Source of the DNA: a virus
Lineage: Duplodnaviria > Caudoviricetes
Virus record (IMG/VR): IMGVR_UViG_3300031555_003522
Coordinates: 128,001 to 192,000 of that record
DNA: 64,000 bases
Strand: one strand, 5' to 3'
Under the pieces are notes generated by a model. The model worked only from the letters and a program-made list of their open reading frames with translations. It ran no database searches and had not been told where the DNA came from. Both the position numbers and the translations under genes were made by a program. Shown one piece after another: positions 6,976 through 53,975 of the stretch. The number at the start of each line of letters is the position of its first letter. Position 1 is the first letter of the stretch.

Positions 6976-7189
6976 ATACTTCCTGTATTCCTCTGAGCAA
7001 CTTAAACTTAGAAAGTCTGTAGAATCTAAGATGGGAAGAGTTTTTAGAACTGGTACAGTTATTGTGAATGGAAAGAGAAAGCCATTTACAGAACTGTCAT
7101 CTAAGCCTACATCTAGATTCTCAGATGCTATAGTTGTTGCTTCTGGGGATCCTACCTTGATGAACTATACACTGCCTGAAGGAGGCTAA
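6962..7189 (+). CDS. Small basic hypothetical protein
   Basis: ATG at 6962 after GGAGG; overlaps the upstream stop. Confidence 0.65.
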   Translation: MAAIKYFLYSSEQLKLRKSVESKMGRVFRTGTVIVNGKRKPFTELSSKPTSRFSDAIVVASGDPTLMNYTLPEGG

Positions 7190-9019: not shown

Positions 9020-11731
9020 ATGAAATTCACATCATTACACCTTACCAATTACATTGGTATATATAATGGTATGGGATTATATGATATCCATATAGATATG
9101 ACAAAATCCCAAAATAGAATAATGATTATACGAGGAGATAATGGTAGTGGAAAATCAACTCTTGCAAAAGCAATGAGTGTATTTCCAGATCCCAATGATT
9201 CCTTTATTCCAGGTATGCCCGCCAGAAAAGAAATAGTTCTTGCAGATGGCCCAACTTTTTATCGACTTCTTTTTATTCATGGAGTAAAAGCAAATGGAGA
9301 TAGAGAGGTAACAAAGGCATATATAACTAAGACATTTGGAAACACAGCCATTGAATTGAATGAGAATGGTAATGTTTCTTCATATAAAGATATCTTATAT
9401 TCCGAGCTTGGATTGGATGCTAATTTTGTTGCATTATCTCAATTGAGCAATGACGATAGAGGATTGGCGGATAAGAAGCCAGCAGAAAGAAAGAGATTTG
9501 TTAATTCTATAATATCTTCACTTGAGACCTATAATAGTATTTATAAGACATTAACAAAAAGATCTACTAATCTAAAATCTATGATTAGTTCCATTGCAGC
9601 AAAACTTGGAGTTCTTGGAGATCAGCAAACCGTAGATGCAAATTTACAATCCGTTGAAGACAGAATAAACACTCTTCAGGATCTAAAAGATAAAGCTGTT
9701 ACAGAGATGGCAAAAGACCAGTCTCTTATATCTATACTAGATCCAGATGGATCTATTCAATTGAATAATACAAAAATATCTACAGATCTTGCAATTGCTA
9801 AAAAAGATGTAGAGAAAATTCAAGCTAAAATTCTTGCTATTAGACAAGAGAATTCTATACCAGATGGAGATTCTCATAATTTAAGAAGAATAGTATCTGA
9901 TAAAAAGGGATCTCTTATGGTAGCTAATCAGCTTGCTAGAAACAAACTAGAGAATTTATTAAATAGACAAGAAAATGAAGCTAAACTCTTAGGAGATAAG
10001 ACGAGAAGATTGGAGTCTCTTAAGAGTGAATATGATTATGGTATACTTGTAGACAAAATAGCTATTTATACACAAGATATTGCAGATATAGAGAATACTC
10101 TAGGAGCAATAGGAATACGAGATATAATGTCTATAAGTAAAGCTGAATATATATTGGCTCTCGAAACCCTTAGAGACTTATCGGAATATATTCTGAGATT
10201 TAAAGCTTCTACTGATTTGAAAATAATAGAAAGCATTATTGATGAGTATATGCCTACTGGAAAAATACCGGCAAGACAAAGTTCAGATGAAGATGCCAAG
10301 ATAGTTGAAGAAAGCAAATTCAAGATGGTTTCTATAGAAAAAGATGTTGATCTTTTGGAATCTAGACTTGGATTATTAGATAAACTTCAACTAAGACCAG
10401 ATGACTGTACCGATGATTCTTGTCCATTTATTAAAGAAGCTCTAGAATTTTCTAGAACTAATCCTCATAATGAAATAGATAGACTTGATGCATTGGTTTA
10501 TTCGTGCCAAGCTTTAATAGACCACCATTCTAAAGAAATAATTAGAAAAGATGATTATAATAATGCAGTAAACACATTTGCTATTATAGTAAGAGAGATA
10601 GATAAGAACGGAGCTATACTATCTAAAATGCCTAATGGTGAAATGTTTGCAGATAAAAAGCTATTCTTTTCTAGATTATTATCTGGATATAGTTTCGAGT
10701 ATATGGCAGAAATATATAAATATATTGAGTATGCCAATCTATTTGATACCTATAGACAGACTAAGCCAGTTCTTGCCGAGTATCAAGCAGAGCTTAAGGT
10801 TTATGAAAGCAAATCTGAGATTATAGAATCACTAATGAGCGATATACAATCTATAAGTATTGTATTAGACGAAATAATGAGATCTATAGACCCGATAAAT
10901 AAAGAAATTAGTGATAGAGAATTAGAAATATTATCATTACAAGAACTTGAAGGTATATACGATACCATCATTTCTTATGAAGATAAAATGAAACCACTAA
11001 TTCAAAGTATTTCTGAGCTTGAAACTATGCTGAGCAACAATCAGAAAAAAATGATAGATATTACAGAAGCATTAACTAGAATTTCTTCTCATAGAGAATC
11101 TATAGGTAGGTATACATTTGATTTGTCTCCTCTTATGCGAGAAAGAGATAAACTTGTGCATACCTTACAGATGATGAAAGATTATGAGAAAGAACGCGAT
11201 GAGCTTCAGTCGACCTATGATTTTATAGAGACTATTAAATATTACTCATCACCGACTACTGGAATTCAGTTGGTTTTCATGGAACTTTATATGGGTAAAA
11301 TAATAGCTTTAGCTAATAAATTATTGAGCCTATTATTTGGAGGTCAGTTTGTTATACAGCCGTTTGTAATAAATGAGAGTGAATTTAGAATTCCTTGTTT
11401 AGGAAATGGATATATAAATGATGATATATCTTCTATGAGTAGTTCTCAGATTGGAATGATATCGATGATTTTAAGTTTTGCATTATTGTATCATTCTAGT
11501 ACTAAGTATAATATTATTAAACTTGATGAGATCGATGGACCGTTAGATCAAAATAATAGACTATTTTTCTCAGATGTATTAAATAATATTATGGATATTA
11601 TGGGCACAGAACAGTGTATTATGATATCTCATAACTCTGAGCTTCAAGTAGATAATGCTGATGTAATTCTATTAAAGCATGATATAAACAATACTGAATA
11701 TAGAAGAGGAAATATAATTTGGAGTTATTAA
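9020..11731 (+). CDS. sbcC: SbcC/Rad50-like SMC ATPase (recombination nuclease subunit)
   Basis: Walker A GDNGSGKS, long coiled coil with central CTDDSCPF, signature-like SSMSSSQ, Walker B IIKLDEIDGPLD, H-loop ISHN. Confidence 0.92.
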   Translation: MKFTSLHLTNYIGIYNGMGLYDIHIDMTKSQNRIMIIRGDNGSGKSTLAKAMSVFPDPNDSFIPGMPARKEIVLADGPTFYRLLFIHGVKANGDREVTKAYITKTFGNTAIELNENGNVSSYKDILYSELGLDANFVALSQLSNDDRGLADKKPAERKRFVNSIISSLETYNSIYKTLTKRSTNLKSMISSIAAKLGVLGDQQTVDANLQSVEDRINTLQDLKDKAVTEMAKDQSLISILDPDGSIQLNNTKISTDLAIAKKDVEKIQAKILAIRQENSIPDGDSHNLRRIVSDKKGSLMVANQLARNKLENLLNRQENEAKLLGDKTRRLESLKSEYDYGILVDKIAIYTQDIADIENTLGAIGIRDIMSISKAEYILALETLRDLSEYILRFKASTDLKIIESIIDEYMPTGKIPARQSSDEDAKIVEESKFKMVSIEKDVDLLESRLGLLDKLQLRPDDCTDDSCPFIKEALEFSRTNPHNEIDRLDALVYSCQALIDHHSKEIIRKDDYNNAVNTFAIIVREIDKNGAILSKMPNGEMFADKKLFFSRLLSGYSFEYMAEIYKYIEYANLFDTYRQTKPVLAEYQAELKVYESKSEIIESLMSDIQSISIVLDEIMRSIDPINKEISDRELEILSLQELEGIYDTIISYEDKMKPLIQSISELETMLSNNQKKMIDITEALTRISSHRESIGRYTFDLSPLMRERDKLVHTLQMMKDYEKERDELQSTYDFIETIKYYSSPTTGIQLVFMELYMGKIIALANKLLSLLFGGQFVIQPFVINESEFRIPCLGNGYINDDISSMSSSQIGMISMILSFALLYHSSTKYNIIKLDEIDGPLDQNNRLFFSDVLNNIMDIMGTEQCIMISHNSELQVDNADVILLKHDINNTEYRRGNIIWSY

Positions 11732-11773
11732 ATAATAGAGGAAGGAGATAATCCTTCCTCTATTATTTTTTTT
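11732..11773 (+). terminator. Intrinsic terminator
   Basis: aataatagaggaagga / tccttcctctattatt plus T run. Confidence 0.85.
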
Positions 11774-11792
11774 AATATTTTACATAATCTGT

Positions 11793-11804
11793 AACATTAT
11801 TATG
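11793..11804 (+). promoter_or_regulatory. Late-type promoter AACA-N6-TG
   Basis: AACA TTATTA TG with no downstream ORF. Confidence 0.6.
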
Positions 11805-12120
11805 AGGAGAAGCTGCGTCCGCCCATATAAAATAACGCCTTTGGAATTACCCCACCTCAGCATGTTTTGGCAGAGGTTGATTTCCATTTGAGTTTTACAC
11901 TCTAACGCCGTATTTTATACGCACCTTCTTCTGACATAGCGGCTCGGGTCCTATACGATATATTTGCCACTTTATATTATCGGTAGGATCGAGCATGTGC
12001 TGGTTTCTCAATTGTCCATATGGCGATCTCCTATGTATGTTACCTTCGTGATGCTTGCGGTAAAATAAAAGTGGCAAAAGTATCCCCCGGCGTAAATGGC
12101 GCCGGGGGATATTCTTTTTT
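11804..12120 (+). ncRNA. Putative ~315-nt structured non-coding RNA
   Basis: Promoter motif and terminator (12081-12120) bracket a GC-richer ORF-less region; stems 11805-11818/11919-11932 and 11942-11960/11978-11994; pseudoknot 11963-11973/12068-12078. Confidence 0.55.
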
Positions 12121-13078
12121 AATATTCATTCATTATATTATTTCCGTCTAATACAAGAGGCCATACCTGATTGATATTTCTATTTCTTGCTATCTGAGTA
12201 TGAATATCAATTGTAGTATCCTCTAATAAGAAATTATCTGGTCTAGGATAATTAGGAATACTAGCACCAGTAGTCGTATCGATTACGTCAAAACAACGCT
12301 GACCAGTAGCCTGATTATATCTAACTACAGTCTGTACATTAGGATTAGATTCCATACGCATTCTAGCCTGTTCCGGACTCAGTCCATTAGGAGTAATTCC
12401 ATTATTGGCAACCATCTCTACACCAGAAACGCCAGCGGCAGGATTATTTACACCAAGAGTGATATCCTGAATACTAGGAGCAGGAGGTGTATAAACGCCA
12501 ACAGGAGTATTTACAAATGCAGAATAGATATCCATCATCTTCATATCATCATTAGCTTCACTCTTATCCATTTTGAGAGTCTTAAATCTATTAAGATTAA
12601 GATTATGGGCCTGAGTAATAGTGCTGTTAAGTTCTTTAATAGCAGAGATCTTGGTGGATAATAAAGCACTAGCAGATGCTGTTAAATTAGTAAGGTAAGT
12701 GTATTTACCTTTAATAGTTTTGCTAGCGCGAATCTCATCAATATCTCCTTTAATAGCTGCACTCATTTCGTCAGCCTGGACTATAGCACCGCGTAAAAGA
12801 TTATTGGTTTCAGAGTACGAAGTGTGATAGTTTGTCTCTGCTATATCTGCACCGGGTACAGGATTTATCATTCCATTTATACCCAATTGATCTTCAGGAA
12901 TAACTGTGACACTAGCTTTCTTCTTTTTCTTGGATTTGGGATCAGGATCTACTGGTAAAGATGATGCTTCTTCAGAAGTAAAGAAACTAAAATCAACACC
13001 AATACTATCATTATCATTATTGGCTTCCGGTATGCTTTGTGCAATCATACCACCAAATAAAGAAGAGATCTGTTCCAT
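12119..13078 (-). CDS. Hypothetical protein (late promoter, possibly virion)
   Basis: ATG at 13078 after GGAGG; AACA-N6-TA motif at 13108-13119 on the minus strand. Confidence 0.8.
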   Translation of the reverse strand: MEQISSLFGGMIAQSIPEANNDNDSIGVDFSFFTSEEASSLPVDPDPKSKKKKKASVTVIPEDQLGINGMINPVPGADIAETNYHTSYSETNNLLRGAIVQADEMSAAIKGDIDEIRASKTIKGKYTYLTNLTASASALLSTKISAIKELNSTITQAHNLNLNRFKTLKMDKSEANDDMKMMDIYSAFVNTPVGVYTPPAPSIQDITLGVNNPAAGVSGVEMVANNGITPNGLSPEQARMRMESNPNVQTVVRYNQATGQRCFDVIDTTTGASIPNYPRPDNFLLEDTTIDIHTQIARNRNINQVWPLVLDGNNIMNEY

Positions 13079-13155
13079 TATATAAACCTCCATTATTTTT
13101 TTTTAATTATTAAGATGTTTAAGGTAATACTTTACGACATCACAAACATTATTTT

Positions 13156-13257
13156 AATCCTTAAAGGATTAGAAATCGCTCATAACGACTTTTTGATCTG
13201 CCCTGTGTATTTGAAAATATAGCCACGCTTCTGCCGGAGCGTGGCTATATTCTTTTA
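13156..13257 (+). ncRNA. Putative ~100-nt small RNA
   Basis: AACA TTATTT TA at 13145-13156; 5' hairpin aatcct/aggatt; unpaired middle; terminator 13216-13257; no ORF. Confidence 0.55.
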
Positions 13258-13339: not shown

Positions 13340-16300
13340 GTGACTCTAATGATTAAAGGTAGAAATCCTGGAGACAATATAACATTGATGAATACAATGT
13401 TTGTTCAAGGGACTGATCCATCTGATGGTAAATTCCATCAAACGATGACATTGGTTTATAAAGATCTTGATAGTGGTCTTAAGCATGTAGAGGAGATCGA
13501 CGATCCTGATTATGAATATTTTATGATTCACCCAGATAAGAGGGTGGATTATAATAGATTATTTGTATCTAAAGACGATGTAGAACGTATTGTAGTTCCA
13601 TATGGATCTTTGGAAAAAGATATAGCTTTGAGGCTTGGATTTAAAGAATTCTATTACGATAATATTCGTACTGGTAATAAAGGTGAGAATAGAAAACTTC
13701 ATATCCATCCTGATCTATTTAATAGTGATATGAATATAGAGGATCACTATAAATTCAGATTTGACAAGATGTATAGAAATGAAACTTGCCCTATAACAAA
13801 AGCATTTTTTGATATTGAGGTTGATAGTATTAATATGATGGGAGACTTCCCAGAACCTGGTGAATGTCCTGTTAATGCTATAACTCTTATTTGCCAAGAT
13901 GTTCATCAAGTATATACATTCTTGTTGAGAACTAAATCCAATCCTCAGATTATTGAATTTGAAAAGCAAGTTAATGACGGCTCTATATTTCCAGAATTAA
14001 CTAATTTCGTTATAGAGGCCGTTGGTGGTCCTCAAGTAGCAGCATCATATGAGATTAATTTTAATTACAATTTCTTATTCTATGATGAAGAAGATGAGAT
14101 TAATCTTATTAAGGATTTATTTGTAGCCATTAATATTCATAAACCAGATTTTGCACTGGCATGGAATATGGGCTTCGACGTTCCGTATATTATTCAGAGA
14201 ATAATAAATCTTGGATATGATCCTTGTGACATAATGTGCCATCAGGATTTTAAACGCAAGATTGTAAAATATATGGTAGATGAGAGAATGAAAAATGAAT
14301 TGGCTGAACGAGGAGATTATGCGGCAATATCTTCTTATACTGTATATCTCGATCAGATGATCCAATTTGCGTCTCGACGTAAAGGACAAAGTAAGTTTTT
14401 ATCATTCTCATTGGATTACATCGGTGAGCATATTGCTGGTGTAAGAAAGCTTGACTATAAAGCTATAACCACGAATATTGCAGAGCTTCCTTATAAATCT
14501 TATAAGACCTTTGTATTCTATAATATAATCGACACCATAGTTCAGTATTGTATTGAGATGAAGACAAAGGATATAGATTATGTATTTGGTAAGGCTCTTT
14601 TAAATAATACAAGATATTCTAAAACCCATAGACAGACTGTTTATTTGACTAATAGAGCTGCTAAAGTTTTTGATGCACAGGGATTTATTATTGGTAATAA
14701 TGCTAATAAGTTTAATAGCAAACCGGATGAAAAATTCCCTGGAGCGTTTGTAGCAGATCCTGAAAAAGTTAATAATACTTCTCGAATGCAAATTTATGGG
14801 TTATTTATAAACTTATTTGACAATTGTGTGGATTTCGATTAAGCAATAGTCGCTTAATTCAGTAATGGATTAAGAAAACTCCCTTAATTGCTGGAAACTC
14901 TAGCAGAAGTGATATAATTGCTTCATCCATATATTATAAATATGGTGCTAGACAATCAGCAGCCAAGAAAAATTGTAAAGGAGACTTTTATCGTGAGAAG
15001 ATATGAGTTCGAAATCCCTATAGATATAATAGATCCATCTATTCTATTGAATGGGGAAAGATTTGAATATATAACAGAAGATATTGTTCCTGGGGTATAT
15101 CCATATTATATGGTATCGAATTGTGGCAGAGTATATCACAGGTATCTTCAATGTATAATGAAACAGGGTTTAGAAACGAGTGGTTATCTATTTATAACTT
15201 TAGCTACTTGTAATGGGCCAAAGATAATTCAAATGAATAGACTAGTCTTAATGACATTTGACCCTAATCCAAATTGCCATGAACTACAAGCAAACCATAA
15301 AGATGGTAATAAGCTTAACAATTATCTCTATAATTTAGAATGGGTAACAAGATCTGAAAATATTATTCATGCATATGAAACTAAACTTCATATACCAAAG
15401 AGCAGTATTTCAGAAGATCAAGCTATTCAAATAGTAGAATTACTAAAAACCAATCAATATCAGTGTAAAGAAATAGCTATTATGATGGGTATTAATGAAA
15501 ATATAGTAAATTCTATTAAGAAAAAAGAATCTTGGAAAAGATTAACTAGAGATTGCAATTTTGATGCTAGACAAGGAAAGTTATATACGGATAATGATGT
15601 TCGTATTTTATGCGAATATTTTCAAAATAATCCAAAATTAGAAGGTCTAGAATCTAAAGCTTATGTACTAGAAGCTTTGATATCTTGTGGATTTGATAAC
15701 CCACAAGATAAAGTAGATACGGCAAGAAAGATCTATTCTAAAAAACATTATACTAGAATTTCTAAAGATTACAATTTTTAAGGTTCAACGACTATCGAAA
15801 GGATAATATGAGAGAAATACTCATATGAATAACCGAGTAGAGTAGAGTTCTAGTGAACTCGAAATGGGGAGCGTCCTATAAACGGTAACAGAATATAGGA
15901 TGATGATATAGTCTAATCTATATGGTGACATATAGCAGCTTACAAGCGGTATAAGATTAACGACCTTATATGAATAAAAATGTTTGCTTCGCTATACCCA
16001 TCTTTGATCCGTCAGTTTAATATAGCAGCTAATACTATTATTGGTAAGCTGATGATTAATGACAAAGTTCATGACAAAGAAAATATTTCTGATATGGATA
16101 ACTGGACTAGAGCTGGTGCATTTATGGAAGATATTCAGTCTCAGCAGTGGCTAGAGTTTACTTCCAGATGGTTTGGACTGCCAGATTATACTGTTCTGTA
16201 TCATGAAGTAGAGAGATTCTTTACGCAGATTGCTAATGCGTATCTCGGTCTTAGGGTCTACGAAAGAGATGGAACTATAGAGCCTATCACATTTGATAAA

Positions 16301-40364: not shown

Positions 40365-40409
40365 AAATAATGGGATAGCTTAAAGCTATCCCATTTTTTC
40401 TTTTAGATA

Positions 40410-40425
40410 TATATTATTAGTATGA
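40410..40425 (+). promoter_or_regulatory. Early-type promoter TATATTAT-N5-TGA
   Basis: Exact motif upstream of the RNAP beta' gene. Confidence 0.7.
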
Positions 40426-40481
40426 AAGTACTTTATTATTCTTCCTGAAACAATAAAGTAACGCAGAAAGGAGACTGACAT

Positions 40482-42701
40482 ATGGAAAGTGCAAAAGAAT
40501 TAGGGTGTTTAAGATACCCAGAAAACTATGGTATGTATGCCGACATCATAGAAGGTAAGCAAGTCTGTATTCATACAGATGATCTTACTACTGGCACTTG
40601 GGACAGACATTATACATCTGTGTTAAATCTATTTAAAGATGGAATTGCTACAGAAGAAGTCCAGGGTGCCTTTATTCATGTACACTTTATAGATGGAGTA
40701 GATCTTGAGATTGCTCTTACAGATTATTTGCTTAATCTTATTATGTGGAATATGCTTATAAGAACGGGAACCCTTATCTGTTCTTATCATGTATTTTTCG
40801 CCGATGAGATCAAGAAAGATACAATTAAGGATTATATTGATAAGTTTCTTATTGATGAAAATCGTAAGAGATATACTAATATGGAACTTAATAACATCAT
40901 TGACGATACTCTTTATAGAATTCATGATATAGATGAATTCGCATTCTTCTTTGCAAATACTGTTAATCTTGAAGATAATGTATTCTTGATGCAGAGATGT
41001 GAAGAATTCAATGAATGTATGCATGCAGATTTGTCTGGTGTAGCTATTGAAGATGTAAAGTCTGTTGGCATGGGATATGCTAATAAAGCTATCCATATTA
41101 TGAAGAATGCTAGTCAATATCTTGGATTCGATCACTGCTTAGCGGATGCATGTAGAGCATCAGAAGGCATTAACCCTAAACAGTTTAAAGAATTTACTAT
41201 TAATATTGGTAGTAAACCTGATGGTCATGGAGGTATCTTCCCAGCCATTATCAACAAGTCTTTTATTAATGGTGGTGTTTCTACACCATTAGACTATTTT
41301 ATTGAGTCTTCTACAGGTCGTACAGCTCAGATAATCAAGTATAATAACGTTGGTTCTTCTGGTCATTTTGCACGGCTTCTTGGACTTAATAACATGGATT
41401 CTTATTTGAATGAGAATCCAAATTATGACTGTTATAGTCGTAATTTCTTGGTCATCACTATCAAGGATAAGAAGACCCTTAAGATGCTTAATAACAGATA
41501 TTATAGACTCAATCCTAGGGGTAAAGAGTTGTTAATATCTGCATCGAAAGATAAGCATCTTATAGGAAAAACAATTTATCTTAGATCTCCAGTTACTTGT
41601 GCATCTGCTGCAAGAGGTCAGGGAATCTGTTATAAATGCTATGGTGATTTAGCTTATACTGTCTATGATGCAGAGGTGCAAGCTGGTGTCAATATAGGCC
41701 GTATTGCTAGTGAGACACTATCATCTAGCCTAACCCAGAAATTGTTGTCTGCTAAACATCTTCTCGAAACATTTGCAGAAAAGGTTTCTTGGGTTAGAAA
41801 ATTTAATGAACTCTTTGAAGTTGAAGGTAATGTGATTAAGCTTAATTCTGAAATTGAATATAAGGGATTAAGATTAATAATTGATCCTGAAATGATTGAA
41901 TTAGAGAATGAAGAAGATGACGATCTTGGATTTTCTGATGATGATGAGGAAGGCGGCGCACCTATCTATAATGAGTATATTGTAGATTTTGATGTTATCG
42001 ACGAGAATATTCCTGAATATCATCATATCTCAAATGATAAAAACGTTAAACTTTATATCTCTAATGAATTGAGATCTATTATTCGTAGAAAAGGTGAGCC
42101 AATAGAGGGAAAGCATTTTATAGATTTCACAGATATTAAGGATGCTCCTATATTTATTATGCCCATTCAGAATAATGAACTCTCTAAAACTCTTGAGCAC
42201 CTTGAAGGATTGCTTAATAAAAATAATACGATGAAAGGTATGAATCTAAACCAGCTTCTGCAGTCTCTTATTGACACGGTTATTGAAGGTAGACTTAGTG
42301 TAGCATCTACTCATCTTGAAGTAATTCTGTCAAATCAGGCTCGAGATCCTGATAATATTCTCGAAAAACCTAAGTGGTTCTTGTTTAATCCTGGTTATGA
42401 GATTCTATCTCTTAATAGGGCTCTTACATTGAACCCTGCAGTTACTATATCTTTGAGTTATCAAAAGGTAGGTAAGTCTCTATATAGTCCTATTACATTT
42501 AAGAAGAAAGGTTCTTCTTTTATGGATCTATTCTTTATGGAGAAACCGCAATATGCAATTAGTGGAAAAGAGCCTCCTGTTAAAGATGAATATATTCCTA
42601 CTCCTGGAGAGCTCTATGAACCTATTACCTTTATTGATGATCCAGATAAAGTTACAGTATCTGCTCAATCTCTTTCTGATGATGAGGAGGAAGAGGAATA
42701 A
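40482..42701 (+). CDS. Phage RNA polymerase beta' subunit, C-terminal part (probably the non-virion RNAP)
   Basis: Bridge helix GRTAQ...SGHFARLL; LRSPVTC...GICYKCYG; trigger loop TQKLLSAKH; HLEVILSNQ. Confidence 0.92.
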   Translation: MESAKELGCLRYPENYGMYADIIEGKQVCIHTDDLTTGTWDRHYTSVLNLFKDGIATEEVQGAFIHVHFIDGVDLEIALTDYLLNLIMWNMLIRTGTLICSYHVFFADEIKKDTIKDYIDKFLIDENRKRYTNMELNNIIDDTLYRIHDIDEFAFFFANTVNLEDNVFLMQRCEEFNECMHADLSGVAIEDVKSVGMGYANKAIHIMKNASQYLGFDHCLADACRASEGINPKQFKEFTINIGSKPDGHGGIFPAIINKSFINGGVSTPLDYFIESSTGRTAQIIKYNNVGSSGHFARLLGLNNMDSYLNENPNYDCYSRNFLVITIKDKKTLKMLNNRYYRLNPRGKELLISASKDKHLIGKTIYLRSPVTCASAARGQGICYKCYGDLAYTVYDAEVQAGVNIGRIASETLSSSLTQKLLSAKHLLETFAEKVSWVRKFNELFEVEGNVIKLNSEIEYKGLRLIIDPEMIELENEEDDDLGFSDDDEEGGAPIYNEYIVDFDVIDENIPEYHHISNDKNVKLYISNELRSIIRRKGEPIEGKHFIDFTDIKDAPIFIMPIQNNELSKTLEHLEGLLNKNNTMKGMNLNQLLQSLIDTVIEGRLSVASTHLEVILSNQARDPDNILEKPKWFLFNPGYEILSLNRALTLNPAVTISLSYQKVGKSLYSPITFKKKGSSFMDLFFMEKPQYAISGKEPPVKDEYIPTPGELYEPITFIDDPDKVTVSAQSLSDDEEEEE

Positions 42702-53303: not shown

Positions 53304-53975
53304 ATGCCAAAAATAAACTTTTTAAGGCCAGTAGTAATACAAGAACACGTATTTCTAAACCAAAAAACTGACCCAATTTTTAATTGGAATGTGGTTATGG
53401 CTGTCAATGCTATTGTAGATGACTATGTATATGCTCTCACGTTATCTAAGAATATGCTTAAAGTTCTATACCGTCTCATTACAACGGGAGATTATACTCC
53501 TAAGATTTCTATCATCGAAAACTTTGATAAGAGCCGGGTGTCTTATGATGAAAGCGATGATGGACTTTATGGATTTATTAGATATCATTTTTCCGATGAC
53601 TGGCAGAAGTATACAGATGAAGATGATGAATTCTATAATAATACCATCCTGATCTTTATGAGCACATATATAGATCTTCAGGAATATGTTTTTGATGACA
53701 GCGATCGTGATAAATACGAATATTATGAGGCTAGTGAAGTAGATTGTGATATCAGTAATGAAGGATCTTATTTCATAAGCTATTTCGAGGGTCTTTATTA
53801 TGCCATTTCTCTGAGTGATTTTAGAGACGGAGTAGTTGGGGTATCTAATACATTACATGGAGCAGTAGCAAAACTAGAGAAGTATCTGTCTGATACTTTT
53901 AACCTCCCTGAATGTATTTATTTTGATTGCGATGTTAAGGAGGGTAACGTATGGATATCAAAGAAGGAGCAATGA
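53304..53975 (+). CDS. Hypothetical acidic early protein
   Basis: AAGGAG RBS. Confidence 0.75.
   Translation: MPKINFLRPVVIQEHVFLNQKTDPIFNWNVVMAVNAIVDDYVYALTLSKNMLKVLYRLITTGDYTPKISIIENFDKSRVSYDESDDGLYGFIRYHFSDDWQKYTDEDDEFYNNTILIFMSTYIDLQEYVFDDSDRDKYEYYEASEVDCDISNEGSYFISYFEGLYYAISLSDFRDGVVGVSNTLHGAVAKLEKYLSDTFNLPECIYFDCDVKEGNVWISKKEQ

Follow-up and report, generated by a model that had tools for sequence, protein, structure and literature searches.

What fills the 387-nt gap that separates an sbcC-like open reading frame (ORF) from a convergent 324-aa gene in the genome of an uncultured phage? The stretch of DNA analysed here (64,000 nucleotides, hereafter the window) comprises bases 128001-192000 of a 207,861-bp IMG/VR virus record, and the genome is that of an AR9-like jumbo phage of the animal gut. 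A sequence-only reading of the window had proposed that the gap carries a stand-alone structured non-coding RNA gene of ~315 nt (11804-12120). This proposal is borne out: the unit has a promoter, a terminator and a significant predicted fold, and it has no coding frame. That 11804-12120 is a true gene for a structured, non-coding RNA made late in infection has, in our estimate, a probability of about 0.8. The product most probably acts as an accessory regulatory RNA of the late phase. The features of the unit and its surroundings are collected in Table 1.

Late promoters of Bacillus phage AR9 follow an experimentally defined consensus, A(-11)ACA-(6N)-U-A/G(+1) (PMC5449584, PMC5312081). The motif at the 5′ edge of the RNA unit conforms to this consensus in its DNA form, AACA-(6N)-T-A/G, whose final base is the transcription start. 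Across the genome, the sequence AACA-W6-T-R occurs in 28 copies, 21 of which are intergenic, while intergenic DNA makes up 10.7% of the genome; these intergenic copies typically lie 20-80 nt upstream of a Shine-Dalgarno sequence and start codon. A related core, AACT, is intergenic in 17 of its 27 copies, and control cores lack such enrichment. This genome-wide placement of the motif before genes goes together with a matching polymerase. The ORF at 40482-42701 aligns with chain D of the AR9 non-virion RNA polymerase (nvRNAP) structure (PDB 7S00) at an E-value of 4.9e-44, and it also matches phiKZ gp74 and phrog_3015. By these matches it is the C-terminal beta′ subunit of an AR9-type nvRNAP, and the gene that had been named as the target of the RNA was therefore correctly identified. 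Because a start at G11804 is well supported, it was also apt to describe the first domain of the RNA as closing from its +2 base.

Two intrinsic terminators were found, against 0.4 expected. The first sets the RNA unit apart from sbcC. The second adjoins the stop codon (12119-12121) of the convergent 324-aa gene and is therefore probably bidirectional. Within the RNA unit the GC content is 0.43-0.47, compared to 0.22-0.31 in the flanks and 0.34 genome-wide.

On the minus strand of the window, Rfam recognises four group I introns between 36595 and 38696 at 75.7-94.3 bits, seemingly within one gene. Beyond the 324-aa gene, an ORF with a PolB exonuclease domain (13340-14842) is followed by an ORF with HNH_3 and Terminase_5-like matches (14918-15781), an arrangement that points to a split polymerase carrying an insert of the homing-endonuclease type.

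Table 1. Features of the RNA unit, its neighbours and its candidate partners; positions are those of the window.
Feature	Position	Strand	Basis or remarks
sbcC-like ORF	9020-11731	+	phrog_77, SMC_N
Intrinsic terminator of the upstream sbcC-like gene	11730-11768	+	17-bp stem followed by a T run; repeat search
AR9-type late promoter motif, AACA-TTATTA-T-G	11793-11804	+	G11804 as +1
Domain 1, predicted branched fold	11804-11932	+	closed by the 5′ end, 11805-11818 with 11919-11932; -33.3 kcal/mol alone
Region with two competing predicted folds	11936-11994	+	hairpin 11936-11954 (nested) or long hairpin 11942-11994 (knot)
Predicted 11-bp long-range helix, 5′ arm	11963-11973	+	complementarity; shuffle test; repeat search
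Tract mirroring start sites, with pyrimidines	12010-12062	+	12015-12032 against beta′; 12024-12062 against gene 53951
Predicted 11-bp long-range helix, 3′ arm	12068-12078	+	complementarity; shuffle test; repeat search
Intrinsic terminator of the RNA unit	12079-12120	+	15-bp stem with 9 G-C pairs, T run
324-aa ORF, family not recognised	12119-13093		convergent to the RNA unit
Second ORF-less late unit, past the 324-aa gene	13145-13256		promoter AACATTATTTTA, +1 at 13156; terminator ~13221-13250
AR9-type early promoter motif before the beta′ gene	40405-40424	+	AGATATATATTAT-N6-G
Candidate target: nvRNAP beta′ C-terminal subunit gene	40469-40486	+	Shine-Dalgarno to second codon
Second candidate target: start site of a 118-aa gene	53926-53960	+	function not assigned; best duplex energy, -30.7 kcal/mol

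As had been supposed, the RNA falls in no known family. At gathering thresholds, no Rfam model matched within 11650-12250, a search that covered RNase P, SRP, 6S and tmRNA, group I and group II introns, ribozymes, riboswitches and GOLLD/ROOL/HEARO. When E-values up to 10 were admitted, both terminators attracted weak, terminator-like noise, the best hit being sraA at 31.7 bits (56 required) on the sbcC terminator. ARAGORN found no tRNA or tmRNA gene between 11000 and 13500.

The minimum-free-energy fold of the whole RNA has a predicted energy of -99.1 kcal/mol (z -3.42), which none of 100 shuffled sequences equalled; the fold of the opposite strand is weaker (z -3.05). The RNA can be modelled as a 129-nt domain followed by a second domain, which an 11-bp long-range helix holds together, and by the terminator hairpin. 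In domain 1, 13 of the 14 positions of the closing stem are paired, with one G-U pair among them and one C-C mismatch, and the inner helices tataaaata/tattttata, tggaatt/gatttcca and acctc/gaggt are all present in the minimum-free-energy fold. The helices had thus been placed at the right coordinates, with the minor slip that base 11919 was assigned to two of them. No notable internal repeats are present in the RNA. A direct repeat, AGCATGTTTTGG / AGCATGTGCTGG, occurs at 11859-11870 and 11992-12003, one copy in each domain. Both UGUU motifs of the RNA have CC before them at the same six-base spacing, and one UGUU lies in the first repeat copy.

The second domain depends on the full complementarity of tttgccacttt to aaagtggcaaa, 11 bp that had been interpreted as a pseudoknot. 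A perfect helix of this length arises in 3 of 300 dinucleotide shuffles (about p 0.01), and the long-range helix is credible as a model; the knot, however, is only one of two folds of about equal energy. A knotted model would gain ~-95.1 and, for the loop helix, ~-13.8 kcal/mol, less a knot penalty, against the energy of the nested fold given above. In the nested fold, the same 11 bp just close the second domain, and the hairpin 11942-11960 / 11976-11994 that the knot requires meets a rival nested helix, 11977-11999 / 12020-12064. A fully paired loop of 11 nt would moreover give no connecting strand unless the hairpin frays. Finally, a natural substitution, 11944 T>C, weakens the hairpin of the knot by removing one of its pairs, at a cost of 4.8 kcal/mol.

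This substitution belongs to a second natural haplotype, found in public gut sequencing runs and carried over the whole unit by run X7 and in its middle by runs X8 and X10. Compared to the window, the haplotype carries the substitutions 11796 A>T, 11804 G>A, 11889 T>C, 11933 G>T, 11934 A>T, 11944 T>C, 11996 T>C and 12005 T>C, a TC inserted after 11849, and one T fewer at 12115. Of the nine natural changes within the RNA, six affect bases that the predicted fold leaves unpaired. The haplotype RNA, which folds at -102.6 kcal/mol, retains domain 1 as well as the long-range helix and the terminator. The changes G11804>A and G11933>U together convert a non-pair into an A-U pair and make the closing stem of domain 1 one pair longer, a suggestive gain, although as a single event it carries no statistic. 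The changes at 11996 and 12005 break the local pairs of the 12010-12062 tract, which are the least certain of the fold. The divergence between the window and X7 is about equal in the RNA and in the flanking genes.

The same haplotype bears on coding potential. Three ORFs occur in the region: one of 60 aa on the minus strand (11895-12077), one of 43 aa on the plus strand (12020) and one of 18 codons (11995). No ORF of the region was found to have a ribosome-binding site; AGGA stands six bases 5′ of the ATG of the 18-codon ORF, and the 43-aa ORF has no Shine-Dalgarno sequence and extends through the terminator. In the haplotype, a stop appears in the 60-aa ORF, where each of the five substitutions alters or ends the protein, and the 18-codon ORF is left without its ATG, so that neither is kept open under purifying selection. 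The RNA unit is non-coding, since the haplotype breaks both small ORFs yet keeps the main helices.

Near-identical copies of the RNA were found in 12 animal feces or gut runs from 10 studies. X8 (a DNA run) and X10 (an RNA-library run) gave only short contigs lying inside the RNA (11810-12050 and 11850-12025), with the flanks uncovered. Since these are of low depth and the RNA library may contain DNA, such contigs, and runs with a small share of matches, are not taken as evidence of expression, mobility or habitat.

Relatives of the locus were collected by means of the SbcC and 324-aa proteins from IMG/VR and a JGI metagenome scan, giving ~35 related phage loci. The order sbcC, gap, convergent ~320-aa gene and split PolB is retained in many of these, and the nearest relatives in which the gap could be compared have flanking proteins that are 62-70% identical. 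A collection of homologues of the RNA between sbcC and the next gene, as had been suggested, yielded none: blastn and nhmmer over all loci returned only noise. A covariance model of domain 1 found no match in 40 loci nor in the whole records of five relatives; DNA searches of these five records gave chance 14-nt matches only, blastn against phage GenBank records gave no match, and neither a scan for a domain 1 18-mer nor a scan of genome contigs gave any. A 17-mer match inside an HTH protein gene was dismissed as chance, and the pattern of the knot arms matched two high-GC phages that are unrelated. Two unrelated phages of higher GC share an inverted repeat, TTTGCCACTTT ... AAAGTGGCAAA, with ~90 nt between its arms, upstream of a gene (L067 667-776, L068 9212-9313); it may be an operator pair and has no relation to the RNA.

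The contents of the gap are instead replaced from one relative to another. In the 70% relative (L060) the gap is 120 nt long and has the sbcC terminator alone, with no such RNA. A 63% relative (L005, 6783-7195) has an unrelated RNA-like unit of ~400 nt with an AACA-N6-TA start and a z of -4.57, whose first domain is likewise closed by its own 5′ end. The gap of a 45-47% relative (L009, 6697-7498) packs into 800 nt five AACA-N6-T-R motifs and, where 0.2 terminators would be expected, six on the plus strand; this resembles a row of mini transcription units in tandem, each ~70-110 nt long. The gap of a 34% relative (L012, 2790-2996) has an ORF of ~68 codons with a ribosome-binding site and no RNA-like unit. 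Given the absence of a homologue in these relatives and the replacement of gap contents among them, the RNA is, among the loci compared, an orphan, an accessory of one narrow lineage situated in a fast-turnover gap. Proteins 82-87% identical to the neighbouring protein (P0001-P0005) are present in ENA/Logan, and their genomes are the only likely carriers of a homologous RNA.

As to what such an RNA might do, we infer trans base-pairing with early start sites to be the most likely single mechanism, while rating its chances at distinctly less than even. The nvRNAP would start late at G11804 (AACA-N6-T-G) and stop at the terminator at 12079-12113. Held between the two arms of the long-range helix, the tract 12010-12062 would then mask the Shine-Dalgarno sequence and start codon of messages from early phage genes, and the translation of these messages would be lowered once late transcription is on, the presumed targets being nvRNAP beta′ (40482) and/or gene 53951. 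This mechanism accords with the late ORF-less units of the genome and has precedents among phage antisense RNAs, c4 for one; 315 nt and two domains are, on the other hand, larger than typical base-pairing RNAs. The timing that it assumes would be coherent, as the beta′ gene has an early motif and the RNA a late promoter. The genome has 10 copies of the early motif, TATATATTAT-N6-R. Seven of them occupy intergenic DNA, at 19-66 nt upstream of genes that include beta′.

The sequence-only reading had singled out beta′ as the target. The pairing that it described is accurate, as tccatatggcgatctcct (12015-12032) forms 15 Watson-Crick pairs and one G-U pair with 40469-40486, leaving two mismatches, and the complementarity covers both the Shine-Dalgarno sequence and the start codon. 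It does not, however, go beyond what shuffled RNAs achieve among all start sites. Scored without gaps, the beta′ pairing reaches over 12011-12043 and, at 36, is the best of 221 start sites (the next scores 29), but 34 of 200 dinucleotide-shuffled RNAs (17%) score at least 36 against some start site. By duplex energy in 40-nt windows, the beta′ site comes fourth (-26.4 kcal/mol), and 27 of 33 shuffled RNAs obtain a better partner. As a specific target, beta′ is thus within chance and not supported. The start site of gene 53951, which ranks first by energy, was equalled by 2 of 33 shuffles. The tract itself has a mean unpaired probability of ~0.3 in the predicted ensemble, i.e. it is mostly paired. 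Whole-RNA duplex folds against start sites were discarded because they yielded unrealistic long-loop duplexes, and a 15-nt perfect complement at 79641-79655 was rejected, being inside a coding region and near chance (E 0.05).

In nine lineages we compared how well the gap fits the start site of its own beta′ gene with how well it fits those of the other lineages (double-centred permutation), and p was 0.018. With the window left out, as the source of the pairing hypothesis, the unrelated gap RNAs of the eight relatives gave no significant preference (p 0.097). The controls of this comparison (the sbcC start site, internal beta′ segments and the opposite strand) were null. A start-site mirror in the RNA of L005 found no target within three mismatches in the L005 genome. 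The late RNA that starts at 13156 served as a positive control for the energy scan: the start site of gene 3852 ranked first as its target (-28.6 kcal/mol; equalled by 5 of 91 shuffles), so that the scan can find such pairs. A separate observation concerns L003, where a mini unit at 7128-7175 follows an AACT-N6-TA motif and the 3′ half of its terminator, with the U tail, is complementary to codons 1-5 of the phage's own beta′ gene (18 of 19 positions, four of them G-U); a mismatched lineage scores nearly as high.

Given its size and fold, a protein-binding or decoy role for the RNA is nearly as likely as trans pairing, if still improbable when taken singly. The folded domains themselves would then be the functional parts, and the RNA would act on a protein as decoy or sponge, its partner being perhaps a defence factor of the host, a nuclease, an RNA chaperone or the phage polymerase. 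A large, two-domain, GC-rich RNA with stable helices suits such a role, as does an accessory slot of fast turnover, where counter-defence genes are often found, and so does a base-pairing target that lies within chance; against it, the Rfam searches revealed no likeness to known protein-binding RNA families. AR9-type nvRNAP recognises late promoters through the single-stranded, uracil-containing template strand 3′-UUGU-5′. The segment 12028-12043 is complementary at 12 of 16 positions to the non-template strand in the unit's own promoter, so that it resembles a uracil-bearing template strand for this polymerase, and it reads as that template does: UGUU, six bases, CC. The match was noticed post hoc and was equalled in 22 of 1000 shuffles; a second UGUU with equal CC spacing lies in a hairpin loop of domain 1 (11855-11866). 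That the RNA is a 6S-like decoy which titrates the late polymerase or serves as its template would be a long shot, since it is one post hoc match that points to it.

Somewhat less probable again is that the unit is a functionless or newly gained insert, transcribed because a late promoter and a terminator frame it and free of selection as an RNA. Its confinement to one narrow lineage would be expected of such an insert, as would the lack of the RNA from the short gap of the 70% relative, the unrelated sequence carried by the 62-63% relatives and the like divergence of RNA and flanking genes between the window and X7. A neutral insert would not readily account for a GC content 10-15 points over that of the genome, a significant fold and an 11-bp helix that is improbable in random sequence, nor for main helices that outlast natural variation and a double change that gains a pair.

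A role in cis appears unlikely. Late transcription from 11804 would here meet that of the convergent 324-aa gene, and collision or read-through antisense would be what matters, with the terminator held in common. The convergent orientation and a terminator that adjoins the stop codon are consistent with this, as are the A-rich tract before the terminator stem and the T run after it, which resemble two-way terminators. Such a role, however, needs no structured body of 275 nt, a G-C-rich 15-bp terminator should block most read-through, and relatives retain the gene pair with a gap of just 120 nt. Least likely of all is that the unit serves to encode a small protein, a reading for which the mere presence of the three ORFs and the AGGA speak, and which the stop gained, the ATG lost and the unled 43-aa frame that overruns the terminator have largely refuted. 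In likelihood, the neutral insert thus precedes the cis collision and the cis collision the small protein, all three standing below pairing and protein binding.

To our knowledge, giant phages with their own RNA polymerases make small RNAs, almost none of which has a known function. The unit at 11804-12120 would add a clear case defined from sequence, with a late promoter, a structured body, a terminator and no ORF, and the gap next to sbcC emerges in this phage group as a fast-turnover slot for such units. If trans pairing with start sites were true, a late RNA would shut down synthesis of the late polymerase, which amounts to a simple timing circuit. The main value of the locus is that of a catalogued candidate, together with a caution about anti-Shine-Dalgarno matches.

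Among known systems, the late transcription units of AR9 are alike in promoter motif and spacing, with G as +1 here, and the present genome encodes an AR9-like nvRNAP beta′ and has an AR9-type early motif before that polymerase gene. In AR9, late promoters are found before protein genes, inside ORFs or in antisense orientation (PMC5312081, PMC5449584), in contrast to the ORF-less unit of ~315 nt described here. The c4 RNA of phages P1 and P7 acts as an antisense RNA on the ant mRNA, whose ribosome-binding site it blocks (PMC12197685). Like c4, the present RNA is a structured phage RNA with a complementary stretch inside its fold, proposed to cover the ribosome-binding site of a phage message. 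Unlike it, c4 is ~77 nt long, is processed from the operon of its own target, and pairs in a manner that has been proven genetically (PMC12197685), whereas the RNA considered here is four times longer, the distance to its target would be 28 kb, and its pairing does not stand out statistically.

In the jumbo phages phiKZ, 201phi2-1 and PA5oct, intergenic and 5′UTR-derived sRNAs have been mapped (PMC11512511, PMC7318152). These, too, are short units that lack an ORF and lie between a phage promoter and a terminator, and the giant phages that carry them have RNA polymerases of their own. They differ in that they were mapped as transcripts and filtered to under 250 nt, and in that one of them is conserved across genera (PMC11512511, PMC7318152), whereas the RNA at 11804-12120 is predicted from its sequence, is larger and has no homologue. 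A further parallel, within the window, is the unit at 13156-13256, which shares the promoter core (AACATTATT), likewise combines a terminator with a body free of ORFs, and also has a start site as its best energy partner; its length is ~100 nt, against 315 nt for the present RNA.
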